Positions 516 to 56,068 of a stretch of 64,000 nt of DNA are shown piece by piece. The stretch is from assembly GCA_000165345.1 (NCBI GenBank), contig CM000436.1, positions 1,120,001 to 1,184,000 of the forward strand. The letters are read 5' to 3'. The position numbers and the translations under genes were made by a program. The notes below the pieces were generated by a model. It saw nothing but the letters and a program-made list of their open reading frames with translations. It was not told the DNA's origin and searched no databases. Position 1 is the stretch's first letter. Each line of letters starts with the position of its first letter.

Positions 516-3500
516 TTAAATAATACTAGCTTTGATAATTTCAGAAATTTCCATCCTTTCATGATTACTAATCATATTTGAAAGAATATTAGAATTGTTT
601 GAGTTACCAGAAAATAATGGTAAGAGTCTTGAAACAATATATTTGTTATTCAAGTGGAATATTAGAAATTTAACTGGCCAAACCCACCAAAGTACTCTAG
701 ATTTAACTTGAGTTACATCTTCAAAATCGTAAATGTCAACAAGATCATTCTGTCTGAACCTATTATAATACAAAATAGAGAACTTATAAAGTTCTAATAT
801 AATTGTTTCCAAAATTGAATCAAATTGCTGAAGAGATACTCTGAAATTCATTCCGCTTCTAATACTTTGATTATTTTGATTGATAATGAGATCATAGGGC
901 ATAGAATTCTCACATAATCGTAATAGATCAGCTATATCAACCTCGAATAATATCGGAGATTCAAAGAAAAATGCTTGTTTAGTTCTGTATTCACATAATG
1001 ATGGAATTTTAATAATGATATGGTTTATAATTCTTGGTTGATTTTTTGAGTTTTCCATCAACCATTTAATTTCTGTAATAGATGAAAAGCCTGTCAAATT
1101 GTAAAATTCTGTAATAAATTCTAGTAAAGTTTCATCATTATGAACCATACTTTGGATATGGAAGATTCCCATAATCAAGCTTTTGAATATATCAATTCCT
1201 TCTTGAGAAATATCAACATTTTCATTTAAATGTGAGACTTCAATATTATTACCAACAGAAGTAGCAAAGATATCAAAAATTTGTTTGACTAGTGGATTAA
1301 TATTAACGTTTTGCTCTAATGCTGAGAGAATATAGTAATTAATAAACTCTGCAATCTGTAACAATATCTCTATCTGTGTATCTACATTAAAGATATCGTT
1401 TCTAATACTTTTAATAAATTCCTTATTCTTATCATCATTCATGTCTCTCTCAATACAAGTTTGAGATTGCAATAATAATGATCTTCTTTGAATTAATGTG
1501 GGATCTTGTTGCATTTTCAAAACCTGCAAGTGTATATCAGACAATAAATCAAAAATATTTTCAAGCCTTTTCCCACCTTGGATGAAACTTGAGCTAGAAA
1601 CTCTTCTTTTGTAATTCTCAAGGCTTTTTTTCATAAAATCTTGCATTTTAACGATTTCATCATTATTTACTTCTTTAAGTATAGTTGAAGAGCTCAAATC
1701 CTTCCCCCTTGAAACCGACTTTAATACATCTGATTGAGTTCTTAAAATCATTGAATTCACTCCAGGAGTAATTTTCCACAAAGCTCTAGACTTTGAGTAG
1801 TAATATTGACCAGCAGAAAGGTATTGCTTAGCATTATAAAGCAGATAACCCTGATCTTTCTTAAGATTATTTTCATTGTTGTAATTGTTAGAAATCAGTG
1901 CTAAACTATTATTTACACTTGGTTGATCATTTTCTAATTTATTAGTAAAATTATTGCTATATCTTTGCTTTGTCAACAAACCAGCTGTAGTATTGTCAAA
2001 ACTACCAGAAGTTTTAGTATTATTTATTAACCCTGGACTCTTTTGTTCTTTATTTTTATTACCTTTAATACTATATCTGTGGGTATCATTCAAATGAAAG
2101 TGCTCCAACCAATTCTTTAAATAAATTGAGTGCTCACTAAATTGAAATACTGATATACATAAATTCTTTATTAGCCAATTTTCCAATCTATCCCCGCCTT
2201 TTCTGCTAACTATTTCTTCATGTACCGTTTTTTGCATGCAAGAATCAATATATGACACGTAAGAAAATAAATAATAGTGGAGCCATTCTTTGCATGTGGA
2301 CAAAAATGATTTTTGGCTTTGTTTATTGAATTTTAAATTGTAATTGGACTCTTGTTGTTTAAGTCCGCAAAGAATGAATTCAATGATAGATGATTTTTTT
2401 TTAAGAATATTTTCTCTGTGATTTTTAAACGCAGAGAGTCTATCTTCAAGAAGTTGCTTTTCAGAAGCTGTGTTTGTATTTTTCAAATGATTGAATGAAA
2501 CATCTAGTTCTCTAAGATAGTCAAAAGATGGGTCATCGACAAGATCAACTTTTGAAAGGAACATTTCAATTTCCACGATATATTCACTATAAATTATATC
2601 CAAGGTATGTTGAAGATTTTGGTAAATCCATAGAGAACAATGGAATTCATAAGTATAAATGGATCTGACAGCATGGGTTATTGAAGAAGTTTTGCAGAAT
2701 TCAAGTAAAGTTTTGCACCCGCTTTGTTCGAAATTTACTATTATATCTTGAAAACTCATCAGCCTGTTGTTATATTGAGGCTCGCATTGATTGATTTCAA
2801 AAAGTAGAATAGAAAGGAAGTATTTAATGAAAGAGTTTGACTTTGAAATATGACTAGAAAATTCCGAAATTGAAGATGGAATGTGTATTTCAACTTTTTC
2901 TCCATTTGAAAGCCAAGGAGGTAGGAGTCCTGTATGATGAATGTATTCAGATTGGGAGTTAATTAGAGTAATAATGGATGGAATCTCCTTCTTGTAATAT
3001 AAAAGGCTCAAAACAATATTCAATGGTACCTCATAAATATTTTCAAATAAAATGGACATTATCTGTGGATGTGATGAATTCCCATGTTGTTCATTACCTT
3101 TGACTTTAGGTCTAGATACGCGAGTTAGGTTCCTACGAGCCAAAAAGTTCTCATTGTGAGATGCTTTATTTCTTTTGTTAATGATTACATCCTTATTTAA
3201 GGAAGATATGCTGTGCTCAATTGCAACCTGTTGAGATGTGATTAAAGAATATTTCGAATTTGATGGGATTGCAGACATATATTGGGATGCCGAAAGAATG
3301 TTATATCTGAATAATAGACGAAGAATAAATTGGAGTCCTTTATTATTTGATAATTCAAATAGTGTAAATTTCGTCAGTGATTTCTTCAAAATATCCATAT
3401 AAGTAAAACATAAAATTGCTTCGTTTGTTATCCTGGCATTATATTTCAGTCCAAGTGGATAAGTCTTACAGAAAAGATTCATCATTTCCAAAATTTCGAT

Positions 3501-6500
3501 GGTTTTTGAAACAAAGTTCTTAACTTCAATAAATAACTGAAGCTCAGAAATATTCAATAAAGAGTATGAATTAGAATTGGAATTAGAATTTGACTTTGAA
3601 TTAAAATTTGTGTTTGTTGAGTAATGATTTGCAAGATATACTTCATCTTCATTATTATTACGGTTAACCTCCACATTATAATTTGGGAACCACCAAGGTA
3701 ACAATAAATCTAAGAGGTTATTAATTGGTATTAAATTATTCTTCAGATGTGTAATATGTTCTTCTTTTAAAGATGAAAATATTGTCACTGAAATCGAATC
3801 ATTCATGGCAAAATCATTCGTATTATTTTCTGGAATAAGCCCATTGTCTTTGTTACTCATTTTTTTGCCATTATAAATTACTTCTGAAGATCCTGAAGTA
3901 TGAACTTGATTATGGGTTAACCAATCTGAAGCTTCAGATTTAAAGAATTCATTAATGCAAGAATTAATCTCCAATACCACATTCTTGTTTTTACAGCTAG
4001 AGGATTTCTGAATATTAGAGTCTTTCAATAAAAAAAAGCTGTTTTGATAAGAATGGCAGAAGTTGTCTGAACTATCAATCTGAGATTTAATAAATTCTGA
4101 AACAAATTTAAGACCATTATCATTTAATGAAAAATCTTTTGATTCAAACTCATCGTAATCATTGCTCTGATTAAGTTGATTCTTCAATAAATCATCTTCA
4201 TCAATGTATTTTGAAAAGTCTGAAGAATTTTTACTAATTAACTCAAAGCTAGTTTGTTGGAATAAAGGAATATCCCAAATACTCCTAATAATTCTTCCAA
4301 TTAGAAGAATTAGCCCTTTGCATCTAGGAGTAATAGCTAATTTGTGATTACAAGAATTAATACTCAAAAAGCAGTTCGAGTTTGACCTAGATTGTATATT
4401 TATATCTGTTAAAAGAGTAAGCCAAATCTTAATTAAAGTAATTGAAGGAAAGTCATTTTGAGCAAAATTCTTATCAAACATTTCAAAATCTTTATTTCTA
4501 ATATGGATTTCAAAAGGATTATCATTCTTGATATCGTTTGAGTAAAATCTTTGTATAAGTTCAGAATCGAGGATTTCTTTGGTATTCATTCCAATAATAC
4601 CTTGCCAAATTAAGGCAAAAAATTGTTCAAAAGTAATAGTTTGAGCAAAAGTACCTAAAAGTTTCATAACAAAAGTAATTGATCTATTATTTTGTAAACT
4701 ATCATCCTTAGATCTTCCTCCAAAAGATCTTAAACCATTCATTGGACTGAAACATTCATGATCATCAAAAACATTCATCATAAAAGAGTAATTATGTGGC
4801 TCCAAAGTCATCTTTGTAATAATATCCAAGAGCCTTTTTTTTTCCAAAATAAATATTCCCTTGGTTGAAATGATTGTCCAGTATCTACATTCAGTTATTT
4901 GATCTAAAATCAAGTCATTTAGTCCATTTGGAGGACATTGGGGAATGTTTATACCAAAAACAGAACATGATGTTGATGAATTCAAATATTTTTGAATTAA
5001 GCAATGTGGTTTGGCTTCTTCATTTGTTTCATTAGTATAAACAGACTTGGAACTTAATCTATTAAAGAAATATCTCCAAAGATGGAAAAATTTTGACCCA
5101 GAAGTTCTACATCCAAATCCTGATAAATTGTTATTAGAAAGTAGTTGATCGTGATTTGAAGCTGAAATATTTGGTCGAATTAAGAGGATTTCTTTCAAAT
5201 TATTATTTCCATAAGAAAATGGATTTGGAGTATTCCAAAGATTCTCGAATAATCTCTGGTATTTATTTGGTACATTTCTTTCTTGTATACTTAAAATAAG
5301 TCCCAAATTTGGATCAGAAAAAGAGTAATTCCATTCATTAAAGTAAGGAGGTGTATTTTGTACACTGGAAGATCCCAAATTTCTATTGGATAAATTCTTT
5401 GCAATAATTGTTTGATCAATACAAGAAGCTGATATACTTGAAGTAATTAATGATAATATTGCCTCATTATCATCACATAAATTCTCAGAAATTTCACCAA
5501 AATTCATTTCAGATCTTTGTGAAAAGATGGATTCTGGTAAATCTAAACCGTCTCCCATGTTTACAGTGGTTAAAATAGAAACTCCATTCGAATAAAGACT
5601 TGAATTAATCAATTTTTCTTCAGAATCTTCTGAGATTATCGAAGTTTTTTTAAACTCTTTAACTCTCATATTTATTGGAATTGAATAATTCAAATTATGT
5701 AGGAATTGATTATTAAATTGTGAATTAGAAACAAAGCAAGGTTTATTTCCACACTCAAAAACAGATTCTAAATATATACGATCTCCATGATCAGTAACTA
5801 AAATGGCATAAATAAAGTCACTTTCTTGTGGATTTGTGGGATGAATTGAATGAATATTAATATATGAAATAAAATTGGAGTTCTTCTTTTGTTGAATAAC
5901 TGATGATTGTTTCTTATTATAATTTGCATTAATTAATTTACTTAATTCACTTTTTAAAGTATTAATATTCAATCTAAATATTAAATTAATTGGTGTAAAA
6001 GAATTCGAGCTTAAAGTATTTGAACTTAAGTATTTTGTTAAAAAAGCACTTAAAGAATTTGAAGAATTTTCTTTTTCAATATAAGTTAAATCATCTGAGA
6101 TTTTTTTGATCAGAAAATTTCCTATTGGTATTAAAAATACATCAATATCTGAGTTCAAATAAAGCACATAAAGTAAACCTCTAAATTCATCAATAAACAT
6201 GGATTTAATACAACTCTGTGATTGACCAAAGAAATAATTTCGAATAAATCTTGGTAAATATGAAATAAAATTATTACCAGAAATCTTTATTAATCTAGCA
6301 AATGAATGGGTTTGATTATCATTATGAATAAATCCAGATATTTTCTGAACTTTTCTTTTTATCCAAGAATTTTCTTGTTCCATTGTATATTCATAAACAC
6401 TACCAGTATTACCACATCCGAGAAAAAATCTTCCTGAAGCTTGATGAGAAATAATCTTAGTAAAAGAAATATCTTTAAATCCAGAAAGAGAATGGTAACT

Positions 6501-7184
6501 ATCTTTTATACGATTAATAATATAATTTCCATTTGTATTTTTTATAATATTTAAAAGTATAATATAGTAATTCGTACAAACTAAAATTTTTATTAAAGAA
6601 GAGCTTTCATCCTCTATAGATCCAACACTGGTAATTATTGCTTTTTTATTGGTATTTTCTTGAAAGAATTCTTCAGTTTGAACAGAATATATGGGATCAT
6701 CTTTTGACCAATTCCAAAAAATTATCTCATTTTCATAATATATATAAAATATACTATGATTATTTAAAGTTTTTGATTTCAAAGCTAAATTTTCTGAAGA
6801 GAGTTTATAAATTAAATTTCTTCTATCATTGGAATCTTTTAAATTCAATTTCATACTTTTTAAATTATTTAAAATGGCTTGTTTAATTTTTTTGGGAAAA
6901 TATCCATTTAAAGCTTTAACTTCAAATGTTTCTGGTCGATATTCATAATCTGTTGAATAAATACCTTTAAGAAAATGGCTTAATTCAGAAAATTCTTCAT
7001 CTTGTTTAATACAAGAATTTAAAGAAATTCCAATAATATTAGATTTTGAAATGGTATCTAATGAATTATTTTCTTTATTCATTAAGTTTAAAGANTTCTC
7101 CATATTCTTTCCTCCTTTATTTATTTGGTTTCCAGTGTCAAATTGGAAAAAATCTTCATTTCTGGTACGAATATTATTAAACAT
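516..7184 (-). CDS. Giant 2222-aa protein. The N-terminal region resembles the beta-propeller of Nup155/Nup170-type nucleoporins; the rest is long and helical.
   Basis: Single uninterrupted ORF. The N-terminal segments IIFWNWSKDDPIYSV and AILVTDHGDRIYLES recall the Nup155 motifs (IFMWNYEDGG; TDNGRIFLAGKDG). The NSNSNSNS low-complexity tract is encoded by an (AATTAG/AATTGG)-like repeat at about 3570-3600. One N base lies in codon 29. Confidence 0.4.
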   Translation of the reverse strand: MFNNIRTRNEDFFQFDTGNQINKGGKNMEXSLNLMNKENNSLDTISKSNIIGISLNSCIKQDEEFSELSHFLKGIYSTDYEYRPETFEVKALNGYFPKKIKQAILNNLKSMKLNLKDSNDRRNLIYKLSSENLALKSKTLNNHSIFYIYYENEIIFWNWSKDDPIYSVQTEEFFQENTNKKAIITSVGSIEDESSSLIKILVCTNYYIILLNIIKNTNGNYIINRIKDSYHSLSGFKDISFTKIISHQASGRFFLGCGNTGSVYEYTMEQENSWIKRKVQKISGFIHNDNQTHSFARLIKISGNNFISYLPRFIRNYFFGQSQSCIKSMFIDEFRGLLYVLYLNSDIDVFLIPIGNFLIKKISDDLTYIEKENSSNSLSAFLTKYLSSNTLSSNSFTPINLIFRLNINTLKSELSKLINANYNKKQSSVIQQKKNSNFISYINIHSIHPTNPQESDFIYAILVTDHGDRIYLESVFECGNKPCFVSNSQFNNQFLHNLNYSIPINMRVKEFKKTSIISEDSEEKLINSSLYSNGVSILTTVNMGDGLDLPESIFSQRSEMNFGEISENLCDDNEAILSLITSSISASCIDQTIIAKNLSNRNLGSSSVQNTPPYFNEWNYSFSDPNLGLILSIQERNVPNKYQRLFENLWNTPNPFSYGNNNLKEILLIRPNISASNHDQLLSNNNLSGFGCRTSGSKFFHLWRYFFNRLSSKSVYTNETNEEAKPHCLIQKYLNSSTSCSVFGINIPQCPPNGLNDLILDQITECRYWTIISTKGIFILEKKRLLDIITKMTLEPHNYSFMMNVFDDHECFSPMNGLRSFGGRSKDDSLQNNRSITFVMKLLGTFAQTITFEQFFALIWQGIIGMNTKEILDSELIQRFYSNDIKNDNPFEIHIRNKDFEMFDKNFAQNDFPSITLIKIWLTLLTDINIQSRSNSNCFLSINSCNHKLAITPRCKGLILLIGRIIRSIWDIPLFQQTSFELISKNSSDFSKYIDEDDLLKNQLNQSNDYDEFESKDFSLNDNGLKFVSEFIKSQIDSSDNFCHSYQNSFFLLKDSNIQKSSSCKNKNVVLEINSCINEFFKSEASDWLTHNQVHTSGSSEVIYNGKKMSNKDNGLIPENNTNDFAMNDSISVTIFSSLKEEHITHLKNNLIPINNLLDLLLPWWFPNYNVEVNRNNNEDEVYLANHYSTNTNFNSKSNSNSNSNSYSLLNISELQLFIEVKNFVSKTIEILEMMNLFCKTYPLGLKYNARITNEAILCFTYMDILKKSLTKFTLFELSNNKGLQFILRLLFRYNILSASQYMSAIPSNSKYSLITSQQVAIEHSISSLNKDVIINKRNKASHNENFLARRNLTRVSRPKVKGNEQHGNSSHPQIMSILFENIYEVPLNIVLSLLYYKKEIPSIITLINSQSEYIHHTGLLPPWLSNGEKVEIHIPSSISEFSSHISKSNSFIKYFLSILLFEINQCEPQYNNRLMSFQDIIVNFEQSGCKTLLEFCKTSSITHAVRSIYTYEFHCSLWIYQNLQHTLDIIYSEYIVEIEMFLSKVDLVDDPSFDYLRELDVSFNHLKNTNTASEKQLLEDRLSAFKNHRENILKKKSSIIEFILCGLKQQESNYNLKFNKQSQKSFLSTCKEWLHYYLFSYVSYIDSCMQKTVHEEIVSRKGGDRLENWLIKNLCISVFQFSEHSIYLKNWLEHFHLNDTHRYSIKGNKNKEQKSPGLINNTKTSGSFDNTTAGLLTKQRYSNNFTNKLENDQPSVNNSLALISNNYNNENNLKKDQGYLLYNAKQYLSAGQYYYSKSRALWKITPGVNSMILRTQSDVLKSVSRGKDLSSSTILKEVNNDEIVKMQDFMKKSLENYKRRVSSSSFIQGGKRLENIFDLLSDIHLQVLKMQQDPTLIQRRSLLLQSQTCIERDMNDDKNKEFIKSIRNDIFNVDTQIEILLQIAEFINYYILSALEQNVNINPLVKQIFDIFATSVGNNIEVSHLNENVDISQEGIDIFKSLIMGIFHIQSMVHNDETLLEFITEFYNLTGFSSITEIKWLMENSKNQPRIINHIIIKIPSLCEYRTKQAFFFESPILFEVDIADLLRLCENSMPYDLIINQNNQSIRSGMNFRVSLQQFDSILETIILELYKFSILYYNRFRQNDLVDIYDFEDVTQVKSRVLWWVWPVKFLIFHLNNKYIVSRLLPLFSGNSNNSNILSNMISNHERMEISEIIKASII

Positions 7185-8002
7185 CAGAAATTAAATCAAT
7201 TAATAACAATAATAGTTATTTGAAAAGTTGTTTTTCTTCTTTATTCTTATAAAGAATGTAAAATAATTATGGTTATTAATTAATAATTACTTAATTTCCC
7301 ACCCTTTTTACTAATAATATTCGGTAATTATTTCATATCCAATATAATATATTATCAAAATAATAATAATAATAATAATGGCGATACTTTTCTTTTTAAT
7401 TTGTTGGGAAAAAAAAAGGATAAATCTTGAATAAAAAAGAATTAACAAGTTTTTTTTTTTATCAATACAATTTAATTAATATTTACATATACATTTGGCA
7501 ACTTTTTAATCAATGGATTTCTTAATATTTTTTTTAAAGAAAAAAAGAATATTATTATGGNAACTTTTTTTTTCTCAAATTATTTATATTGATTTAATTA
7601 AATATATAAGCATAAATGACGTGGGGTTGCGCGCGCAAATTATATTTTGAATTATAATATATATATACCGGTATCGTTATTACGTGGTACCAAGTAAATA
7701 TAAAATATATTATTTAATTTAAAAAAAAAAAAAAAAAAATATGTATATAATAGTAATAGGTAAAAAGTACATGAATAAGATAGATTGAAGAATAAATAAG
7801 TAAATAAATGAGTGGAAATAATAAGATCTATAAGTGTGTGTAAAAAAAAAAAAAGAAAAAGAAAACAATTCAAGAATATAATGGAAATACAGGTAAATTA
7901 ACAAATAACATGAAATAAAATTTACATGTGAATTAAAGGATAATTAAATAGATATAATGAATATATGTATGAGTAGTTGTGAATAATTGATAATGAAACA
8001 AA

Positions 8003-9462
8003 TTACTCCAATACAGAAACAATGGGTTTTTGTCTTTCTGGAAGTGGTTTTGATGAATCTTTGGTATGATCTCTAAGATTCTGTTCTCTTTTTTTCTTGG
8101 CATTAATCTGCACAAGTTTTCTTTCTTGAATTGATTTAATCATCTTTGGCACGTGATGATGTCTGGAAATCTTTTTAATTTCAGGTAAATGCTGGTATCT
8201 ATCAATAAGCTGATTTCTATAAGCTAATGTTTGTCTTTCTCTATAAGATCTGGGTCCAAGTGGTTGACTGGCTTCATTTTTTCCATAAACGAACACAAAA
8301 ATCAGATGAGCCACTCACAATAAATNTACCATCAGCAGTNAATTTAGTANCCCATACATTATGCATTCTTTTTGNATGATAAATATCTNTANAAGCACCT
8401 TGGTCAATATTAAAATATTCTNATAGTATTATNTNTTACTACCAGCAACAAAAACTGTTTCCCCATTGGTATTATTANTCAACATCTAAAAACAGCATGA
8501 ACCAAAACCTTTTANATNTAAAATCTANCCAATGGTTAAGCCTTTTCTTCATAATCAAAATGTTATATAACATTGTAAATNATCATTAAGCAATATTGTG
8601 AAATATTAATNGGTTGGTCTGGAGGCGTNCCAACAAATATGCCATTTGGATTTTATTTTGATNAAANAACNNTNNNTNANNCTGTTGATGATCTTATATC
8701 AAATAGTCCAACAGAATTATCAGAAGAAACTGTTGCAACAATATGAGGCTCACTTGGATTAATTTTTGCAGAATAAACAGTTTCATTTCCCCATTCAAAT
8801 TCTTGTAATGGCGTACTTCTATGACGATCCCATACATGCAAACCACCAACTCCACTACTTATTAATACACCACTATTCCAATGGTGATCTAAACTATATA
8901 ATTGATTATTTGCAAGAAATGTAGTTTCAGGAATAATTGCTTTTGAAAAGCTAGAAATATTATCATATCCATTAAATACATCCTCAACATTTCCTCCATC
9001 TTCTAATTCCATTAAATTCATTTCATTTACAGATTCTCTTTTAGATATTTTCCACATTTGTAATTTCTTATCGTCACCACATGAAAATAAATGCTTATCA
9101 TTATTTGTAACACATAATCCACGTACTGCTCCTTCATGTGCTCTAATCATATATTCACATCTTCTGCTACCTGCTAAATTCCAATATCTAATAGTTCCAT
9201 CAAATCCACCACTATATATATCAGAAAGATGATGATGAGCTCTTGCTAAACATTGAACAGTATCTGAATGACCCTCAAATACAGAAACCAAAGGCTTTGA
9301 AAACATTTTCCTTAATTTTACGCTCATTAATGCTCTGCTATATTCTCTAGCTTTCTCAAAAGGGTGGATATTTGGATCAGGATTATGATAAATCCTTTGT
9401 ACGGAACCTTTCGATCTATCTTGATATTTATTTACATCTCTTTGTAATACTTTAACTTTCAT
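8003..9462 (-). CDS. SOF1: Sof1/DCAF13 WD40 protein of the U3 snoRNP (SSU processome). The gene is interrupted by a run of ambiguous bases at 8315-8700.
   Basis: N-terminal ORF 8653-9462 begins MKVKVLQRDVNKYQDRSKG...HPFEKAREYSRALMSVKLRKMFSKPLVSVFEGHSDTVQC, matching the Sof1 N-terminus and WD repeats. C-terminal ORF 8003-8314 (...RHHHVPKMIKSIQERK...) matches the Sof1 C-terminal domain. The two parts are separated only by the N-rich low-quality stretch. Confidence 0.7.
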
Positions 9463-15600: not shown

Positions 15601-16174
15601 TGCTTTATGACCTATAATGTGCAACAATAACTGCAATAAGTAGCTGCTGCTGGATTCAGCCCTTTACATTGGGACTATAAAGCATGGAAGGCATAAATAA
15701 TATCGCTCCTTTTATTAATCATCCAATATCTAGCTTTATTGGCATACTATATCAACTTGAACTTTAATCGAAAGAGAGAAACAATTTCTAACAATAAAAA
15801 AGAATAATTCTAGTTATATAACAATTATTTCTATTTTACTTTATTTTATTTTATTTTTCTCCCATTATTTTTCTTCTTTGTATATTATTTATATTATTTA
15901 TAACACGTAATATATTGTTTTGTTAAACTATTTTGATAATTTACACAAATCAACCTTGAAACTTTGCATATTTCAAAATTTTCTAGTTGTTCATCGACCA
16001 AAATTTAATCACTAAATTATGAAATTCTTATTATTTATTCGAATTCCCCTCATTTTGTTTTCAATTAGTAGAAAACTTAAAGATAATACTAAATTAATAT
16101 GAACATGTAATTTATTCCCAAAAATTAAAATATAAATTATTATTATTATTATTACCTCTCCTCATGCATGCAAT

Positions 16175-17617
16175 TCACACGTAATAATTGACTCTAAACT
16201 CTTTAGAACTAATATCATCACTAGGAAGAGGATCAATAATATGATTTCTTGAAAATCCAACAAAGAACCAAATTATATTTGAAGTTAAAAATAATAAAAA
16301 GAATATTCCAATACTACATGGAATAGAAACAGCAGGATCTGCAAAGTTAATAGCTGAGTAAATAAAGCCAAGATCATCTTGAGATTGTGGATTTGGAAGC
16401 TTAAGAATAAAGTAAACAATTGTAAAAATCAGGTATATTAAGCAATAAAGGAATGAATAGAATGCTTGAGAGATAAAAAATGGTATTGTAGTAAAATAAG
16501 TATCTAGTGAAAGTAAAATTGCTGTTAAACCATGTTTATTAAAAGTTAAGAAAGAGAAACCATCAACTCCAACAGGTGATATTATACTCATTGACCAATA
16601 AACAATGGAAACAATGAAAGATGCTGGTAATGCAATTGCATGAAATACCCACATAAGTCTAATTAATAATGGTAAATTAATATTTGTTGTAGTATTATCC
16701 ATTCTTTGGTTAATTTCATCAGCAAAATGTGGTCTGTCTGTTTCTTTGCAATATTTTATAATAAACATATGAGATTTTAAATGATTGTAATATCTTACAA
16801 AAATATTTCTTGTCTTTCTGGGTATAATATATTCATTATTTCTTTCAGTATTATTTTTTATTGCATTCTTATTTAAATTTTCAGGCGATTCAAAAGCTGT
16901 CGAAATTGAAACAATACTTGCATGACCATAAGAAGCTTCTTTATTTTTATTACTATTATTATTTTCAAGATTTAAATCAACCATTTGAATTTCGTTTAAT
17001 TGTGCATTTTTTGGACTACTTGAGTATCCATTAGTTGTATGATCTGATACAACAACTTGTTCATTATGTTTTGAAGGGTTAATATGTTCAAATTTTCGAT
17101 CTAAAATATTTAATATGGAACCACGTGGTCTAGAATTGACATTTTGATGACCAATAATATCATCATCAAGTTTTAAATGAATTCTTCCACCAATTGATGG
17201 ACTATTAGTCATTTTCAAAGACTTTATATACTTTTTTCTACCAAAAGAGTTATTTGCATATGAATATATAGTTGAAGTTGTTGCAAAAAAATAGTAAATA
17301 ATTGTTATAGCATAAGTCCAATTTGTAACATATACACCCCAGTACATAGCATATCCTAACTTATAATAATTAGATACATCCAATCCAAGCATAATAAGTA
17401 GATATAGAAAAACAGATAGTCTAAGGTAAATCAAAAACCATTGTGGAATAATCCAAGAACAGTTAAAGTGATTAGTTTGTTCAAATTCATCAAAAGTGAA
17501 TGTGATTCTATTAATAGCTCTACTTAATTTATACTCCCATATAAATCTATGTAAAATTAATTTCCATCCTCTTTTAATATTTTCTGAAACATTCACCATT
17601 TTTTTTTTTGTTTTCAA
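16175..17617 (-). CDS. Multipass membrane protein with a large hydrophilic N/S-rich insertion. It may be FAR-17a/AIG1/Rolling-stone-like; I cannot firmly assign a family.
   Basis: About 6-8 predicted hydrophobic helices at both ends of the 480-aa ORF. The central approx. 200 aa are low complexity. Confidence 0.45.
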   Translation of the reverse strand: MKTKKKMVNVSENIKRGWKLILHRFIWEYKLSRAINRITFTFDEFEQTNHFNCSWIIPQWFLIYLRLSVFLYLLIMLGLDVSNYYKLGYAMYWGVYVTNWTYAITIIYYFFATTSTIYSYANNSFGRKKYIKSLKMTNSPSIGGRIHLKLDDDIIGHQNVNSRPRGSILNILDRKFEHINPSKHNEQVVVSDHTTNGYSSSPKNAQLNEIQMVDLNLENNNSNKNKEASYGHASIVSISTAFESPENLNKNAIKNNTERNNEYIIPRKTRNIFVRYYNHLKSHMFIIKYCKETDRPHFADEINQRMDNTTTNINLPLLIRLMWVFHAIALPASFIVSIVYWSMSIISPVGVDGFSFLTFNKHGLTAILLSLDTYFTTIPFFISQAFYSFLYCLIYLIFTIVYFILKLPNPQSQDDLGFIYSAINFADPAVSIPCSIGIFFLLFLTSNIIWFFVGFSRNHIIDPLPSDDISSKEFRVNYYV

Positions 17618-18926
17618 TTCAAATTATATATTACGACACTTCCTTGCTGAATACAATATCTTATTTAATATTTACTATAAGTTATATTTTATCTTACTTT
17701 TCACACAGTATCAATTAAGATCTTCTTAAACTTTAATTCTGTATTAGTAATAATTGATTTAGTATTATTTCAAATTAGTTTTCTTTTTAAACTGTTTTTA
17801 CAGTTTAATAATAAAAGAGATCTTAATTAATGAATTGTGGAATTCTAATTACGATAATGTATCTACAACGGAACTCTGAAATGAGATATTTCCTGGTACT
17901 TTTTATTTTTAATTACATACAGTATTGTCGAGGGTGATCAATGTACACTTAAATATTTTTACCTTTAAAATTCAAAGTAATACAAACCTAATTTTTTTTA
18001 ATTAGATCTGAGGACACTCAAAAACTTGTTCATTCCATCAAAAAGAAATGTAATAGTAATCAAATAGTATATTTAAATACTCATTTGATTACTTCTAATC
18101 GGTTCTCTTTTCTATTATTATATTAATCTAATTAATACTTCACACTTTCAATTATTTACCACCTCGATATTTACCGCCAATTCCCCCCTTAATTTTTACA
18201 CCCTTGAAATTAATATTGAATTTAATCACATTGGCGCCAAATTTTCCAAATTGTTATTGTGGACAATTATTAACAGATAAAATAGAAAATAATTGTGGGG
18301 AAATGGGTAAATGATAGTATAAATAATAAAACTATTACAGCTAAAAACTTGTTACAATTTATTTGCTTGATTTTTTTTTGTCATCTTTCTTTATGAATAG
18401 TTAATGCAAATATCTTTTTGAAATATTCATAAGTTCTATTATTATTATTTTTTTTTTTAAGAATATGGAATTAAAACTAATGGGTGCAGTTGCATGCACT
18501 AAATTTATTTCAATAATTTCTCAATTAGATTTTATTTGTAAATTATTGGATAGTTTTATGAATAGTTTAGTTATTCATTAATTTAATGATTAATTAAATA
18601 GTATAAAAGCTTTTAATTATTGAATAATTTTGTTGTTTTATATGAGAAAAAAAATTGCTGTATTTGATCTTTAGTGGCGTATAATGTCTTTGTGAAAATG
18701 TTAATAAGTGATTATTTGAAAATAATTGAAAAAATAAACTTAGAAAAATTTTAATAAAAAGTTGAGTAATTGATATTTTCTTCTAGTATGAATGTATGTT
18801 ATAAGCTCATTTAAGTAAAATATATTAGGGTAAAAAGTGAGTATTGGTCAATTTTAATATTTTCCTTTTTAAGATTAAATAAAATATATTAATAAGAAGG
18901 AAAAAAAAATTTAAATCAAAAGAAAG

Positions 18927-20510: not shown

Positions 20511-20669
20511 TTTAGATAGGATTTAATTTGTTATTAATTTTGTATCTATACTTGTGGGGATATTCTTTCTCTCTTTTCATGCGCATTAATTAAATTATTT
20601 TTTCCAGGGTTTAAACTATTCAACCTGGCGCTCAATTTTGCATGCCCTCTTGAAATTAATATACATTTG

Positions 20670-20731: not shown

Positions 20732-21406
20732 ATGGCTGAAGTTATTGATATAGAGGAATTTTTAAATAGTATTGAAAGAAGAATACAAAAATGTGAAAAT
20801 ATTATTTCTTCAAAAAAAGAAGATTTTAGAAATAATTATGATCAAGGGGTTTCAAATAAATCAAAGGAGAATAATTCATTAACTCCTACTATTCAAAATA
20901 GGCTTGCAGTTGGTCAAAATAGTTTAATGGCTAATTTAGAAAATGAAATTCAAGAGCTTGATAAAGTTAAAGATGATCAAAGCTACTCCATTAATTATAA
21001 GTTAGATTGTATTGAATCAATAATTAAAAAAATATTTAGTTTAGGACCTTTGGAAAATTGGTTATCTACTTATGAAACAATTAAAGCTTATTTAGAAATG
21101 GACTCTGCAGATTTTGAATCATCTGTATTAACTTTAGATTTAAGAAAAGCTTACATCATGGAACATTTTGATGAATTTAATACAATGAAGTCTCAATTAA
21201 TTGAGTTAGAAAATTTGTTACCATTTTTAAATCAAGAAATAGATATTCAAAGTATTAATGATACTGGGAAAAGATTGAAGGATTTGGAAAATAGATCTAA
21301 AAGAATCAGTAATGAAACAAAGTTATTATGGGAAAATCTTGAAAAATTAGTATTTTCATATTCAAATTTCGTCTATAAATATAATATTTTAACTTTAAAT
21401 CAATAA
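20732..21406 (+). CDS. Hypothetical 224-aa helical protein
   Basis: Uninterrupted ORF. Coding-like composition compared with the flanking AT-rich spacers. No family recognised. Confidence 0.45.
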   Translation: MAEVIDIEEFLNSIERRIQKCENIISSKKEDFRNNYDQGVSNKSKENNSLTPTIQNRLAVGQNSLMANLENEIQELDKVKDDQSYSINYKLDCIESIIKKIFSLGPLENWLSTYETIKAYLEMDSADFESSVLTLDLRKAYIMEHFDEFNTMKSQLIELENLLPFLNQEIDIQSINDTGKRLKDLENRSKRISNETKLLWENLEKLVFSYSNFVYKYNILTLNQ

Positions 21407-22925: not shown

Positions 22926-24415
22926 GGATCCTACTTNATCTTCAGAATCTAATAATATTGCTGAAATCGCCCCAGCTTAANTTNCAATTCCCATTCTGGG
23001 AGATTATGTNNAAAAATCTTCTTTACACACTTTNCCCTTCATTTTTTTTTTTCAANTTATACTTCCCAATATATATATATATATATATATTTCTATAATT
23101 GTTTGAAACTTGTAATCCATTATTCAAATTATATTTATGTATTTGTTTTAAAATATTATTTGATATAAATTATTTTGATACATGCACGCATTACTTTGCA
23201 ATAATATAGCTTAAGATTCAGAGAATTTTCAGACTCCACATTTATTTAAAAAAATGCATTAATATATACAATAGCATAAAGATAATGTGAAGTGAAATTT
23301 TTTTGAATCTACTTTCTTTTAATTCTATGCAATTACAAAACAACTGGAATTCAAGTATATTGGTATAAGCAATTTTTTCTTTCTAATGATTGCTTAAACT
23401 TCTTCTTTACTTTCTTGGGTAATTTGAGTGCATATTTCAATAATTAAATGAATTATTGAAATATGCTAAAGTTAGAACAGGAGGAAAAAAAAAAATTACC
23501 AAATTCAAAGTTATTCACTAAAAATTCTTAATATATTTAATTTAAATATTTTTGTTTTGGCGCCAGACTTTGTTTCTACTAATAATAATGTGGGGAATTC
23601 CTAGTAAAAAAAAAAAATAATNTATNATAAAATAAAATTTGAATAATAATAATTTTTATATAAAATNAATGATTTTCTATAAGAGTNTTTGATTAANTTT
23701 TATTACATTTCCCTATTAAAACTGGTGTAGATTTTTCTAATTGAATGATTTTTTTTTGTTTTGGTTTAATTTAAAAGATATATATATTTGTGTATCTATT
23801 TATAGATTTATTTATAATTTTAATATTTAAATTAATTTATGAGGTTTTTTTTTGTTTTATTAATATAATTTTGATTAAATATTTTAAAATTAATTTTCCA
23901 GTTTTAAATTTTCTATTTTCTAGATGTTTTCTGCATGCATTGCATGCATTTTTATATATTTATAATTTTTCGTGTGGACGAAATTTTAAGTTTATATAAA
24001 AGTAAAATTTTAAAGAAAAATAATAGAAGATATTTGAGTAATATAATTAAAAAAAAATTGTTTTGATCAAACAAAATAATATTACAATTCATATTAATAA
24101 ATTCTTTTTTCTTCTTCTTTTTTCTCTTTCTAATTTCTTCTTATTTCTTAATATTATCGATTAAGAAAATACTACATATACATAAGAATTAAAATTGAAA
24201 TTAAAATGATTGATAATTTGAATTTGAGTTGAGTTAAGGTTTACATTTTATAATTTTCTTAATAAATGGAAAAAGAAAATAATCAGAATAAAAAGAATAG
24301 TCGAGTTGAGTTAATAAAAGAAAGAGAAAGAAAGAGAATGGAAGAAAGAAAGAGAGTGAAAGTCGTTATATTTTGAAAATAATTAAATACAAATAATTTA
24401 ATATTATTTAAAATA

Positions 24416-25039: not shown

Positions 25040-25533
25040 TTTTTTTTTTTTTCTTTTTTTTTTCTCCTGTTTCAAATTTTAATTCTAACTTTTCCTCTCA
25101 ACACATATTATTACAAAAACAATAGGAATTCACTGGAACATTGAAATCAATTCACTAAATATTAAAAGAAAAGATTGTAATTGAATAATAACAAAATCTA
25201 CCAGCTAAAATAGAACAATTATAAATCATTATATTACTACCATTAAAATATTGATAATCAACTAACTTTCCCAAAAATAATCCCAACTTTATCTAAATAA
25301 ATTTCCATCATTTTTTCATCAAATTATTCTTATATTCTAAATGCAGTAATTAACTATTATTTATCCACATAAATGTGCGTGCATGCATGATGGCGCTCAT
25401 GTAAAAAATGACGTGTTAAAAAATAAATCGAATAAAAATAGAAAGTGATAATAGTAGTTTTAGTTGTTGTCTTGATGAAGTAATTTTGAATAAATAGTTG
25501 AAGATAATGTGAACTTCACCTTTTTTCTCAAAT

Positions 25534-25630: not shown

Positions 25631-32053
<6,423 letters not shown>

Positions 32054-32243: not shown

Positions 32244-33341
32244 GGCTACTCTTTCCAAAAAGTTGTATGCCTGTCCAATATTGTAATGTAAATCTTCAGG
32301 TCCAAATTACGAGATTCTGCATAAATCTCAGTCCAGAATTAGAGTATAAGCTTTCCAAGATGTTGATTTCCTTTAATTTCTAATATTTTATCGGTACCTT
32401 ATAGTTTTTTTATCTTGGATCCTCAGTAAATTTTCTCAAACTTGTATATGTAGAACCCCTCAATCAAATACTCATAATAGTATATCATCAAATTATTGAG
32501 TTCGACTCCTCCTTTAGTCAGTAAATTAAAAAAAAAGCAACTGAGCTCTTTCTCTTATTTTCTTCTTTTTTATTTACTCTTTGAACATTTTCATATTTTG
32601 TGCAAACTATCTACTCAAATAGCAGACATACAGACGTACATACGTATTGACTGTCCAATAATATGTGTAGTTACTTGCTATTCCATCACGCGGCTGTCTG
32701 CACCTACCCTCCCTTTTTAATATCTATTATTGAGACATATATGTATCAATAATTTTATTAAAAAAAAACTGAACTTGCTTTTCAGTTTTTTAATTCAACC
32801 TTAATTTTTTTATTTAATTAAGATAATCTTATTCAACAAAATTTGATTTTTCTAATGTTTTCAATGTCATGCAATTTACACCCATTTTGCCAATTTTCGC
32901 CGGTATACATTTTTTTTTTATCAGACATGTGGGGATTGACACGTGTATTTTTTTTCTAATTGATTTTTTTTTCTTAAACAGTTGTATAATAATTTTATTA
33001 AGCTTCATAAATTCGCTTGAAGCCTGATCATCATTCATATAGAACAAGAGATTTTAACTAAGAGAAAATACTAGATATTGGTCAAACTAAATCACTAATC
33101 TAACACTTTGATAATAATTAAACGTTAATTTCCACATTGATACTTTATACCATTTTCCGAGCATATTGACAAAAAAAAAATACGTGAAAATTAATTAGTT
33201 AAATTTTTTTTTTTCTTGAAATTTAGAAACAAATTATATCTTATTTTAACTAAATATTTTACTTTAATATTAATTAGATAAATCACTTTGCTTATCAATT
33301 ATTTACTTCAATTCAATAGATTTCAATTTATACCGCCTATC

Positions 33342-33357
33342 AATTTGGCGCCAAATT
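33342..33357. promoter_or_regulatory. Perfect 16-bp palindrome AATTTGGCGCCAAATT (E2F/DP-like site) in the CHD/ELO divergent spacer
   Basis: Read directly from the sequence. A GGCGGG site lies 35 bp downstream (33392-33397). Confidence 0.55.
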
Positions 33358-33943
33358 GTGGTTATGAATTTATGAATAATATTGCTGTGAAGGCGGGCTA
33401 AAAAGGGGGGAGTCAGGTATTTGTTCATTCAGAATAAATAAAAAAATGTATATAATATATATATATATATATTATATACATATGAATTGAAAATGATGGG
33501 TACCGTAAATAAATTTGTTGAACAAGTAATACAAAATTTGAATGTATTTATAGTTTAAAAAAGTTAGTATTAAATCATTAATTATTACACAAGTGAGAAC
33601 ATATATAAATATAAATATACTTGGAGATTTAATAATAATAAATTAATATTAAGAAAAGAAGAAGTATTTTGAATATAAAAAGTTCTCCTGTACAAGTACG
33701 AGCTCGAAGATATTTTTAATAAGCCTATTTTGTTTCAACTTTTTGTATTATTTGAAGTTCATGTAAAATAATTCTTGGATATATTTTTATATTACTTTTC
33801 ACTCAAATATTCAATTGGGAATCTATTAGCCTATATCTAATAGCACTCAATACAAATTTGCAATAAATTAAAAGTATAATGCAATTATAACATTAAATTA
33901 TTAAAGAATTATATTATAAAGATAATTAATAAAGGAGACAAAA

Positions 33944-37653: not shown

Positions 37654-38856
37654 CTAGTGGTTTAGTAAGAACTCGCTACAATGCTTTCCAGGTACAAATA
37701 ATGGTCCTAATGGGTCCTGGAAATCATATGGATCATACTTGGATGGGTATTTATCTACACTTCCTGTAAACTTTGGAGGAACAACAAGTCCAGGATTTGA
37801 GGGGGATGAAATTGTGGCAGTTTTAAGATAATAAAATGTATTTCCAGTGCTAATAATACCGGTATCACTAATAATAGACATTGAACCGTCATATTGTCCA
37901 ATCTCAGGATACTTTCCTTGTTTGATGAAAGGTTCTGAGAATGCAAAATGTCTAGAAAAGATATGCATAAGAAGCTTTTCATTATTAGTTTCAGGTGCTG
38001 GACTAGCAAAACTACCAATGCTTGTCATTTTACCTTCTGGATAAGTAACCATAAATCCATACCATAGTGTTTGGCCTTTCTTTGCAAGTACATTAGCTTT
38101 TTGAGGCTCACTTGGAATATAAGATGGAGTATTTGATTCTGTTGAAAGTTGTTCTTGTACTAGTTCCTGACAGATATAGTTACCTCCCCATCTAAAAGCA
38201 TTATCCTCCAAAACTTCAAATACAAGAGCTAACTCTTTTGGATTTGTTAAAAGACCTGTTTCATTTCTATAAGTACTCATTGTAAAATTTGTTTCTGTAA
38301 TTGAACCAGATTCTAAAAAACTAATCTTAGCCCATTTTTCTGTCTCGTTTGGCCAATAGAAAGAAGTTGGTAAAGTTTTAGATCCATTATTTTCATCTTG
38401 ATTCTCTTCCTTCAAGCTTCTAATATTATTCCTAGGTAATGTTTTTTGTCTAAGTTTATCCATAATTTTCTTTCTATTAATTCTTTTAAATTTGAAATCA
38501 TTTTCATCAACAGTAGTATTACTTTGAGTTGCAAATTCAACAATTTCTACTCCAAATCCATAAAAGAAATAATCAAAAAGATGATCAACATTTTCTTCAA
38601 ATAACGTCATTGATTCATTTGAAGCTGTTTTGTAGTTTGAAAACAACTTAGATTGATCTGGAGTACCATCTATTTGAGAATATTCATAAATAGTAGTATA
38701 AGATCTTAAGTTTGTTAGCCAAGCATCAGCTTGCCTACTAAATATCCATTCAACTTTTGCTTGATCAAATATTAATGCATGGACTATACCGATCAATAAT
38801 ATAACACCAAGTAAATATTGTAATTGTTTTGTTTGAATTGAATTCATATTAATCAA
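37654..38856 (-). CDS. Secreted or membrane-anchored hypothetical protein, 400 aa, with an N-terminal signal peptide
   Basis: N-terminal hydrophobic stretch LLGVILLIGIVHALIF after a short polar leader. No family recognised. N-glycosylation-type NxS/T sites are frequent. Confidence 0.45.
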   Translation of the reverse strand: MINMNSIQTKQLQYLLGVILLIGIVHALIFDQAKVEWIFSRQADAWLTNLRSYTTIYEYSQIDGTPDQSKLFSNYKTASNESMTLFEENVDHLFDYFFYGFGVEIVEFATQSNTTVDENDFKFKRINRKKIMDKLRQKTLPRNNIRSLKEENQDENNGSKTLPTSFYWPNETEKWAKISFLESGSITETNFTMSTYRNETGLLTNPKELALVFEVLEDNAFRWGGNYICQELVQEQLSTESNTPSYIPSEPQKANVLAKKGQTLWYGFMVTYPEGKMTSIGSFASPAPETNNEKLLMHIFSRHFAFSEPFIKQGKYPEIGQYDGSMSIISDTGIISTGNTFYYLKTATISSPSNPGLVVPPKFTGSVDKYPSKYDPYDFQDPLGPLFVPGKHCSEFLLNH

Positions 38857-39469: not shown

Positions 39470-39489
39470 AATTTGCATGCATGCAAATT
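39470..39489. promoter_or_regulatory. Perfect 20-bp palindrome AATTTGCATGCATGCAAATT (double GCATGC motif), with a GGCGCC site 36 bp downstream (39525-39530)
   Basis: Read directly. Located in the 1-kb divergent spacer between the genes starting at 38856 (-) and 39847 (+). Confidence 0.55.
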
Positions 39490-39846
39490 TTCCATTTTTT
39501 TAATCCCGGTATCGAGCCACGTATGGCGCCAAAGTTTGTAGATGAATAATAAATTATGTGGAAGAATTTTATGCAATAAAAAAAGTTTTAAATAAAGACA
39601 AAAAAAGGAAAGAGAGAAGAAAAAGGGGAGGAAATATTTCAAGTAATAATTAAATAAAATAGTAAGGTGGAAGAGTGAAATAAACTAATAAATATTGTTT
39701 GGCTTAGCCACTAATTTGTTTTCATTTTCTGACACGTAATTAAAATTAACTTTGAAATGGATTGAGATCTGGAAAGCTTAGTATATATTTCTTTCTTTCT
39801 TTTTATATTATTTAACTTAAAAAAAATAAGTGAGTAGTAAATAAAT

Positions 39847-40431
39847 ATGAAAGAAGTTAGTGATGATATTTATAGCCGAGTTAGAAAAATTAAGTTTAAG
39901 AGATTAGGCTTAGACCCAAGTAAAAAAAGTAATCAAAGTGAAAAAGTTGATTATAACAATAACAAGAAAGATAAAGATGATGAACATCAATATTTAGTTT
40001 CTTTTAATTCCAAAGTTGAAGAGAAAAAGAAAAAAGGAGAAGGGAGAATTATAACATCAAATACTACAGTACAAGGATTTCATACCAAATTTCAACAAGA
40101 ACTTAAAATTGGTGATTATATAGAAATTGAACATCCAAATACATTAATTAAAGAAAGTAGACAAGTGGTCAGTATTGTGAGCGAAAGAACATTAATCGTA
40201 GATAGTGAATTTTCTTGTGACTTGGTTTCAACTAGTGAATATTACTATTATACGAATACAAATGACAATGATTTGGATATTTTAAATAAAAGTAATACAT
40301 ACTCTTATAGAGAAAAGGATGGAATGTTTAAATATAAGACTGTAGTTAAATCAGTGAATTCAAAATTGTCAAGGGAAGATATTTTAGATATTAGAGCAAA
40401 AAAACAAAGAGATAAATATTGTTGGATATAG
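39847..40431 (+). CDS. Hypothetical 194-aa basic protein
   Basis: Uninterrupted ORF, K-rich N-terminal half, no family recognised. Its stop lies only 100 bp from the convergent RPF2 stop. Confidence 0.4.
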   Translation: MKEVSDDIYSRVRKIKFKRLGLDPSKKSNQSEKVDYNNNKKDKDDEHQYLVSFNSKVEEKKKKGEGRIITSNTTVQGFHTKFQQELKIGDYIEIEHPNTLIKESRQVVSIVSERTLIVDSEFSCDLVSTSEYYYYTNTNDNDLDILNKSNTYSYREKDGMFKYKTVVKSVNSKLSREDILDIRAKKQRDKYCWI

Positions 40432-51058: not shown

Positions 51059-51219
51059 TCTTTTTTTAGCATACGTGGGAAGGCGGGCTTTTCCCAACAT
51101 AGAATTGCATGCAAACTTAAATATATATAGGAAATATTCACAAAATTATAAATATGAACAATTAAGTTTGTGAAATTTAGAAAATCTATATTTTAACACT
51201 AGAATTTAATAAGTTATTT

Positions 51220-52908: not shown

Positions 52909-53737
52909 ATCATTATTTTTCTTTTTTTTCCCTTAGTAAAATAGATTTCTGTTTTCAATATAGTTTACTTTTTATTTTACTTTAACTTTTATTCTTTATT
53001 TTATACTTATATTTTGATAAGCCTATTTAGTTACTTACCTTAACACACTTCCCCCCACTAAAAAAAAAGCCAAGAATATTAATATCAAGTGATTAATATT
53101 TCACTAAATAGATTTTCAAATCACACAGATCTCAAGGGAATAGTGTCAGATTACCTTATTTTCTCGAAATTCTAATTTTTTTTAATACTTAATTAAATTT
53201 GTTTATTGCTTTAGCATGCACACCATTTAAGAATATTTACTAATACCTTAATTTCTGACCTAAATGTGTGTAATACAACAAATAACTTGCCAGGACTCTT
53301 TTATTCTTATAATAAACCTTTAAAATATTATCAAGATGTATTATATATATATATTTTTTAGTTACACCTTCTTTAACCCGGCCTTTGAAAATTTAAATAT
53401 TTCAATTTAGTATTCATCCTTTTTTTTTTTTTTTCAAATTACCCCATCAATTGCATTTCACAGTTTACCGCCAAGTCCCTGCCTACAAATGTGAGAGTTC
53501 CCGCCTTTAATTAACAGTTTTGGCGGGAGCTGATTGTTAGTCTTCGAGAACTGAGCGCGTAAATGTGGAATTGGGGCAAAAATGCATATATACTATCGGT
53601 TGGGACCGGAGAGGGGTAAATGGGATCTTATAAGGAGAAAAAAAAAAGAAAGAAGAATAGTATTGTCTTTGAAGTGATCATTTAATTGTTTGTTATTGAT
53701 TTTTTTTCTATTTGTTTATATCACCTAATAGTATGAA

Positions 53738-55986: not shown

Positions 55987-56068
55987 GGCAAAGTGCTCGA
56001 GTGGTTAAGAGGTCAGTCTCGAAAACTGATAGCGTTTCGCTGCGCAGGTTCGAATCCTGCCTTTGTCG
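55987..56068 (+). tRNA. tRNA-Ser (anticodon CGA), type II with long variable arm
   Basis: Acceptor stem GGCAAAG/CTTTGTC with discriminator G. D-loop GTGGTTAAG. Anticodon stem TCAGT/ACTGA with loop CTCGAAA (anticodon CGA). Long variable arm. T-arm GCAGG-TTCGAATC-CTGC. Immediately followed by a T6 Pol III terminator. Confidence 0.85.

Follow-up and report, generated by a model that had tools for sequence, protein, structure and literature searches.

A 20-bp GCATGC palindrome between two divergent Cryptosporidium parvum genes is probably an ordinary pair of overlapping AP2_1 sites near an E2F/DP site

Introduction

What is a perfect 20-bp palindrome doing in the spacer between two divergently transcribed genes of Cryptosporidium parvum? 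The element (AATTTGCATGCATGCAAATT, positions 39470-39489) lies within a 64,000-nucleotide stretch of chromosome 8, the whole of which is referred to here as the window, and it occupies a spacer of approximately 1 kb that separates the divergent genes cgd8_4660 and cgd8_4670. A preliminary description of the window had drawn attention to its length, to its GCATGC core and to a nearby GGCGCC. Our analysis of sequence, read together with published motif and expression data, suggests that the palindrome is very likely an overlapping pair of TGCATGCA sites of the AP2_1 type for ApiAP2 factors, with an E2F/DP site (TTTGGCGCCA) ~40 bp away, both lying in the upstream DNA that the two genes share. The palindrome is a real and genus-conserved element, probably a functional one, and an unremarkable instance of promoter motifs already in the literature.

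Results

The palindrome core matches the AP2_1 motif twice

Both the perfect palindrome and a GGCGCC at 39525-39530, 36 bp from the palindrome end, were confirmed. No other palindrome of at least 20 bp in the window is anything but a (TA)n repeat. The element is built as follows.

39470-39489, unstranded: 20-bp perfect palindrome AATTTGCATGCATGCAAATT, read directly
39474-39485, unstranded: core TGCATGCATGCA, two TGCATGCA sites (39474 and 39478) overlapping by 4 bp

The consensus of the C. parvum AP2_1 motif, written BGCATGCAH or [T/C]GCATGC[A/G], is matched exactly and twice within this region, by TGCATGCAT (39474-39482) and by TGCATGCAA (39478-39486). The element also shares with the published motif its restriction to non-coding DNA, its upstream location and its palindromic core, and the flanking gene cgd8_4660 belongs to an AP2_1-rich cluster. 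Nothing essential differs; this instance is doubled and overlapping, and AT-rich flanks extend it by chance to 20 bp in C. parvum. The earlier suggestion that the GCATGC core is an element of the ApiAP2 type, in an apicomplexan, agrees with this published motif.

The octamers TGCATGCA and TGGCGCCA were noted as over-represented in the non-coding DNA of C. parvum in 2003, and again in 2007 and 2013 (Bankier 2003; Mullapudi 2007; Oberstaller 2013). On protein-binding microarrays, the AP2 domains of cgd2_3490 and cgd1_3520 bind TGCATGCA, and so does AP2-Sp, the orthologue in Plasmodium (De Silva 2008; Oberstaller 2014). A 2025 review lists cgd1_3520, cgd2_3490 and cgd4_1110 (AP2-F) as AP2_1-like binders, the last two being female-specific. 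Homotypic doubling is common, since 6 of 19 long non-coding RNA (lncRNA) promoters that carry AP2_1 only have two copies of it (Li 2021).

The neighbouring decamer TTTGGCGCCA (39522-39531) fits the published E2F motif 3, DTTGSCGCCH (Oberstaller 2013 Table 1). An E2F site has a palindromic [C/G]GCGC[G/C] core with T-rich and A-rich flanks (TTTSSCGC), an arrangement found in the longer segment TTTGGCGCCATA. Variants attributed to the E2F/DP motif include TGGCGCCA or TTTGGCGGGAAA and [A/T][C/G]GCGC[G/C][A/T], with GGCGGG also counted. C. parvum has two E2F and two DP proteins, whose binding to the motif is inferred in the literature from motif similarity and from peaks in the assay for transposase-accessible chromatin (ATAC).

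The core is kept across the genus and the arms are not

The syntenic divergent spacer was compared with that of ten other species (C. meleagridis, chipmunk genotype I, C. ubiquitum, Cryptosporidium sp. SRR31860986 (L006), C. canis, C. felis, C. xiaoi, C. ryanae, C. bovis and C. andersoni), the sequences used being the window and ~9 kb of each orthologous locus. An E2F site followed by (T)GCATG(CA), with the E2F site on the cgd8_4670 side, occurs in the same order in 11 of 11 species, including the gastric C. andersoni with its spacer of 320 bp. C. meleagridis, chipmunk genotype I, C. ubiquitum, C. canis and L006 retain the full core TGCATGCATGCA, and C. felis and C. andersoni carry the shorter ATGCATGCAT(GC).

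The perfect palindrome itself varies in length. It spans 12 bp in C. meleagridis, C. canis and L006, 14 bp in C. ubiquitum, 10 bp in C. felis and C. andersoni, and at most 6 bp in C. ryanae, C. bovis and C. xiaoi; the arms diverge without compensatory changes, as in C. meleagridis, where they read AATTT...AGATT. A length of 20 bp recurs in chipmunk genotype I via one added GCAT unit. We infer that the core is selectively kept, by purifying selection, and that the arms are AT-rich flank without a role of their own. The length of 20 bp is incidental, because the arms are not kept across species and because such lengths are not rare by chance in this DNA.

The orthologous site in chipmunk genotype I (L009:2645-2664) reads TTTGCATGCATGCATGCAAA. 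Its extra GCAT unit indicates that the site also behaves as a short tandem repeat with variable copy number.

The core belongs to a 73-bp conserved footprint

Conservation was scored as column identity to C. parvum, which averages 0.40 over the spacer. The four most conserved 12-mers of the spacer, ATCTACAAA, TTGGCGCCAT (E2F), CTCGATACCGGG and TGCATGCATGCA, form a footprint of 73 bp at 39474-39546, with the core TGCATGCATGCA ranking third at 0.74. The other elements of the footprint are these.

39505-39516, minus strand: CTCGATACCGGG box, conservation 0.89, the highest in the spacer
39522-39533, minus strand: E2F/DP site TTTGGCGCCATA, conservation 0.82, with core TGGCGCCA at 39524-39531
39535-39546, minus strand: TTCATCTACAAA box (core ATCTAcAAA), conservation 0.73, ranking fourth

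By our own comparison, the TTCATCTACAAA box agrees at 8 of 9 positions with the published 'unknown' motif 24, KATYTRCAH (Oberstaller 2013 Table 1). The CTCGATACCGGG box is present in every intestinal-clade species and absent in C. andersoni. It was rejected as a general motif: with up to 2 mismatches it has 7 matches against 1.9 expected, but the GRTACCG 7-mer is not enriched in non-coding DNA (5 of 14), and the box is regarded as locus-specific. A second exact CGGTATCG lies at 7669 (7667-7688), again beside a CACGTA word and an E2F-like GCGCGCGC.

Two other candidates for the conserved block were examined and rejected. A search of the whole window for non-coding RNA genes at Rfam gathering thresholds returned only the tRNA-Ser at 55987. 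On the spacer, Rfam at an E-value of 10 or less gave two chance-level matches outside the conserved block, and ARAGORN gave none. A hidden exon is likewise not indicated, in that the open reading frames (ORFs) of the spacer encode only 31-62 amino acids with low-complexity products, and no reading frame is maintained across the conserved block from one species to another.

Both motifs are enriched in non-coding DNA

The window is AT-rich (22-40% GC), with long ORFs covering ~68% of it and non-coding DNA the remaining 32%. Against dinucleotide shuffles, GCATGC was observed 12 times with 3.9 expected, TGCATGCA 9 times with 0.52 expected and GGCGCC 12 times with 0.35 expected, and in each case 0 of 100 shuffles reached the observed count. 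Non-coding DNA holds 10 of the 12 GCATGC (binomial P = 4e-4), 8 of the 9 TGCATGCA and 11 of the 12 GGCGCC (P = 3e-5). Under a Markov-2 model, GCATGC occurs 10 times in non-coding DNA with 0.49 expected, and twice in coding DNA with 2.34 expected. In an unbiased ranking of non-coding 6-mers and 8-mers, CATGCA/GCATGC/TGCATGCA and GGCGCC/GCGCCA/CCCGCC stand directly below poly-A and (TA)n. Equal frequency of GCATGC in coding sequence, which the preliminary description had named among the outcomes that would refute its reading, was not observed; the excess is confined to non-coding DNA.

The flanking genes differ in expression and in motif content

We assign the window to C. parvum chromosome 8 because of protein identity and because its genes match the neighbours cgd8_4660, cgd8_4670 and cgd8_4680 in Table S2 of Oberstaller 2013. 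The product of the ORF at 37654-38856 (minus strand) is 100% identical to C. parvum Iowa II EAK89601, and its orthologues are found only in other Cryptosporidium species. The identifier cgd8_4660 was inferred from Table S2 of Oberstaller 2013, where the gene is described as 'hypothetical protein, signal peptide', and the N-terminus of the protein is hydrophobic. The 194-amino-acid protein on the other side is entered at NCBI as 'apicomplexan specific Pf 23612804 and Py 23478322', which is also the description of cgd8_4670 in that table; cgd8_4680 is the Brix-domain gene (Oberstaller 2013 Table S2).

37654-38847, minus strand: cgd8_4660, a 397-amino-acid protein with a signal peptide; distance of its ATG to the AP2_1 core 627 bp
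39847-40431, plus strand: cgd8_4670, 194 amino acids, 'apicomplexan specific'; distance of its ATG to the E2F core 316 bp, to the AP2_1 core 362 bp

In its entry in S3 File of Hasan 2024, cgd8_4660 is classed as 'Female specific' with a log2 fold change of 8.98, and it is strongly down-regulated by seven inhibitors of macrogamont differentiation. The gene belongs to expression cluster 116, which has an excess of AP2_1, the G-box, E2F motif 3 and motif 14; the cluster of cgd8_4670 is number 66, with E2F motif 4 and motif 14 and without AP2_1 (Oberstaller 2013). Among promoters of macrogamont-specific genes TGCATGYR is the top motif, and cgd2_3490 has been proposed as the regulator. E2F is the most abundant upstream motif of C. 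parvum and dominates the ATAC-seq (ATAC with sequencing) peaks of sporozoites, more than half of which are bidirectional promoters.

Is the E2F-AP2 pair a composite module?

The strongest rival to a reading as two independent promoter elements is an obligate composite, in which E2F/DP and ApiAP2 factors bind cooperatively to a fixed cassette of E2F and GCATGC that recurs genome-wide. The preliminary description had proposed such a module from at least four pairings of GCATGC with an E2F-like site. Its list of GCATGC sites is real in every entry, although some positions need a shift of 1 bp; three further sites, at 2234, 18492 and 30720, were not on it. The relevant loci are as follows.

16163-16171: CATGCATGC
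16165-16172, unstranded: TGCATGCA, abutting the stop codon of the ORF at 16175-17599 (minus strand)
18491-18498, unstranded: AP2_1 site in a divergent spacer, with TGGCGCCA at 18232, 259 bp away
20626-20645, unstranded: TGGCGC and GCATGC pair 92-106 bp upstream of the ATG at 20732, with GCATGC at 20640-20645
23932-23948, unstranded: second doubled AP2_1 site TGCATGCATTGCATGCA in a divergent spacer, including GCATGCATTGCATGCA at 23933-23948
25380-25396, unstranded: TGCATGCA and TGGCGC pair in a convergent (3'-3') spacer, with GCATGCATG at 25381-25389 and TGGCGC at 25391
51082-51113, unstranded: GGCGGG and TGCATGCA pair in a 161-bp convergent spacer between seryl-tRNA synthetase and DHHC genes, with TTGCATGCAA at 51105-51114
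53214-53219, unstranded: divergent-spacer GCATGC, with the ATG of the DHHC gene 306 bp downstream

All four pairs are present, but in three of them the partner is not a full palindrome: TGGCGC at 20626 and 25391 and GGCGGG at 51082 (TGGCGCT and GGCGGGC in extended form) are half sites or variants. Proximity is in excess: of 8 non-coding GCATGC loci, 4 have an E2F-like site no more than 60 bp away, where 1.05 would be expected at random (P = 0.014) and 1.68 by placement within their own spacer (P = 0.04), figures that come from a small sample of eight loci and from distance thresholds picked after the data had been seen. The pair at the palindrome is retained in all 11 species, C. andersoni included, further close pairs occur at C. 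ubiquitum L001:7771 (13 bp) and C. felis L003:1543 (12 bp), and AP2_1 and E2F have been reported upstream of the same glycolysis genes.

However, the gap between the two motifs is not fixed, since the pairs of the window show 10, 14, 25 and 48 bp and the palindrome locus ranges from 28 to 59 bp among the 11 species, and the other 4 of the 8 GCATGC loci have no E2F-like site within 250 bp. Co-occurrence at the level of spacers is not significant (P = 0.38), because E2F-like sites are found in 20 of 26 spacers. In the published 200-cluster table the two motifs lean, if at all, towards a negative association: E2F occurs in 29 of 46 AP2_1 clusters against 121 of the 154 others (odds ratio 0.47, two-sided P = 0.05), figures that come from an approximate transcription (unique totals of 46 for AP2_1, 150 for E2F and 120 for motif 14, against per-motif sums of 55, 161 and 122 in the paper; the AP2_1/G-box overlap of 16 agrees). 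Among lncRNA promoters, 93 carry E2F only, 19 AP2_1 only and 17 both, with no spacing pattern (Li 2021), and the E2F-rich ATAC peaks of sporozoites contain no AP2 motif. These findings suggest that an obligate composite is quite unlikely, and they leave the module proposed earlier with weak support.

Chance and structural readings of the palindrome

A second rival grants the palindrome no function at all and regards it as a chance palindrome, or a (TGCA)n slippage micro-repeat, in an AT-rich spacer. This reading gains from the composition of the DNA: locally shuffled windows hold a mean of 0.48 palindromes of at least 20 bp, and 37% of them have at least one, so that the earlier statement that a 20-mer palindrome is 'far beyond chance' was too strong. 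The varying repeat number, with its extra GCAT unit in chipmunk genotype I, also fits slippage. A palindrome of 20 bp or longer that includes six or more G/C is, however, found in only 5.5% of the shuffles, TGCATGCA is ~115-fold enriched in non-coding DNA, and the core is conserved as far as C. andersoni in a spacer where mean column identity is 40%. An accident without function is therefore very improbable.

Least tenable of all is a structural palindrome acting as a DNA cruciform or RNA hairpin (a replication, recombination or untranslated-region element), which the perfect self-complementarity and a predicted 8-bp stem with a 4-nucleotide loop would allow, and which we reject because folding of the region is unremarkable (z = -1.75, with 10 of 200 shuffles folding as well) and because covariation across species is absent, the core sequence being kept while the palindrome falls to 12, 10 and 6 bp without compensatory changes; in addition, TGCATGCA recurs at 8 other places without long arms, and the palindrome has no Rfam match.

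Other features of the window

The one other long non-coding palindrome besides (TA)n is CAATTTGGCGCCAAATTG, a perfect 18-bp palindrome at 33341-33358 that is centred on an E2F core. It follows the same pattern as the AP2 palindrome, a palindromic core flanked by TTT and AAA.

Promoter-like clusters also occur inside long ORFs. One, at 2193-2262 in the ORF at 516-7184 (minus strand), combines CCCCGCC, TGCATGCA and GACACGTAA; the other, at 30720-31115 in the ORF at 25631-32053 (minus strand), combines GCATGC, TGGCGCG, GGCGCCA and GGCGGGA. Both could be internal or antisense promoters. Most antisense lncRNAs of C. parvum are reported to originate from gene 3' ends, with E2F and ApiAP2_1 as the two leading motifs in the 100 bp that precede them (Li 2021). 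Because of this pattern, it is plausible that AP2_1 sites located where no mRNA promoter is expected, namely those in convergent spacers, the lone site at 16165 and those within long ORFs, are antisense promoters.

Two further words recur. The G-box, G[TC]GGGG, is the third known class of C. parvum promoter motif, with the female-specific cgd8_810 as its binder (2025 review), and 8 of its 10 occurrences in the window are non-coding (7621, 13517, 18295, 20554, 23590, 32929, 45509 and 53053). The word (G/A/T)ACACGTAA is found at 2255, 9769, 15903, 16177, 39732 and 41641, and the 8-mer ACACGTAA has 5 copies in non-coding DNA with 0.18 expected. It has no counterpart among the 25 motifs of Oberstaller 2013 Table 1. 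Of these copies, the one that precedes the cgd8_4670 ATG by 115 bp is shared with the closest relatives alone, C. meleagridis and chipmunk genotype I.

Elsewhere in the window, a tRNA-Ser(CGA) gene lies at 55987-56068 on the plus strand. The 2140-amino-acid ORF at 25631-32053 has a GC fraction of 0.37-0.40, compared with 0.21-0.35 in the rest of the window. Single N bases scattered at 7095-8681, 15571 and 22937-23697 mark low-quality stretches of the assembly, and one cluster of them overlaps the 5' part of the ORF at 8653-9462.

Discussion

A possible division of labour in a shared promoter

Both motifs are palindromic and hence can work in either orientation, which suits a bidirectional promoter. 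We propose that the doubled AP2_1 site would switch on the female-specific cgd8_4660 in macrogamonts, where it might be read by cgd2_3490, AP2-F or both. The E2F site would serve cgd8_4670, keep the shared promoter accessible in asexual stages, or do both. Two proteins are unlikely to sit on the doubled site at once, because its TGCATGCA registers overlap by 4 bp; the two registers, offset by 4 bp, would probably raise the chance of occupancy rather than permit double occupancy. The adjacency of the motifs would then reflect a back-to-back arrangement of two compact promoters and not a single cooperative unit.

Three observations weigh against this reading. In C. bovis, C. xiaoi and C. ryanae, all that is left of the core is one half or full site (TGCATG or GCATGCA). 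It is also closer to the ATG of cgd8_4670 (362 bp) than to that of cgd8_4660 (627 bp), so that only the expression data and the motif order assign it to cgd8_4660. Finally, at least three AP2 proteins share the AP2_1 specificity (2025 review). The same review states that most regulatory components of Cryptosporidium are without functional validation.

A broader idea, which we regard as doubtful, is that the 73-bp cassette (ATCTAcAAA, E2F, CTCG(A/G)TACCGGG and (TGCA)3) is a genus-wide core of a bidirectional promoter, in which an undescribed third factor on the CTCGRTACCGGG box might couple the expression of cgd8_4670, driven by E2F in asexual stages, to that of cgd8_4660, driven by AP2 in females. 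On a wider view, E2F-AP2_1 pairs no more than 60 bp apart might mark a class of stage-switching promoters, including antisense lncRNA promoters in 3'-3' spacers.

Related elements in other organisms

The same 8-bp TGCATGCA lies upstream of sporozoite genes in Plasmodium, where it is the element of AP2-Sp (PF14_0633 / PBANKA_132980), whose AP2 domain is orthologous to that of cgd2_3490. The stage programme differs, however, since the Cryptosporidium binders cgd2_3490 and cgd4_1110 are female-specific, and Plasmodium is without E2F/DP and so has no adjoining E2F site. In Toxoplasma, the TRP-2 / TGCATGCA element of the AP2XII-8 regulon has the same core motif and is likewise enriched in non-coding DNA, but that regulon comprises ribosomal proteins and belongs to G1, whereas the corresponding genes of C. 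parvum carry E2F. Plants have the RY repeat CATGCATG, a developmental element with the same alternating sequence that is bound in seed promoters by B3-domain factors, whose DNA-binding domain is of an unrelated class. We know of no evidence for B3 factors in Cryptosporidium, and the resemblance is in sequence only.

Significance

The motif identities at 39470-39489 are already published, and the novelty of the palindrome is low. Our analysis adds the genus-wide conservation of the cassette of E2F, CTCGRTACCGGG and (TGCA)3, together with its link to a strongly female-specific gene, and this is a small addition. The locus matters little as a discovery; as a doubled, genus-conserved AP2_1 site with an E2F neighbour, upstream of a gene that ranks among the most female-specific, it offers a convenient test promoter.

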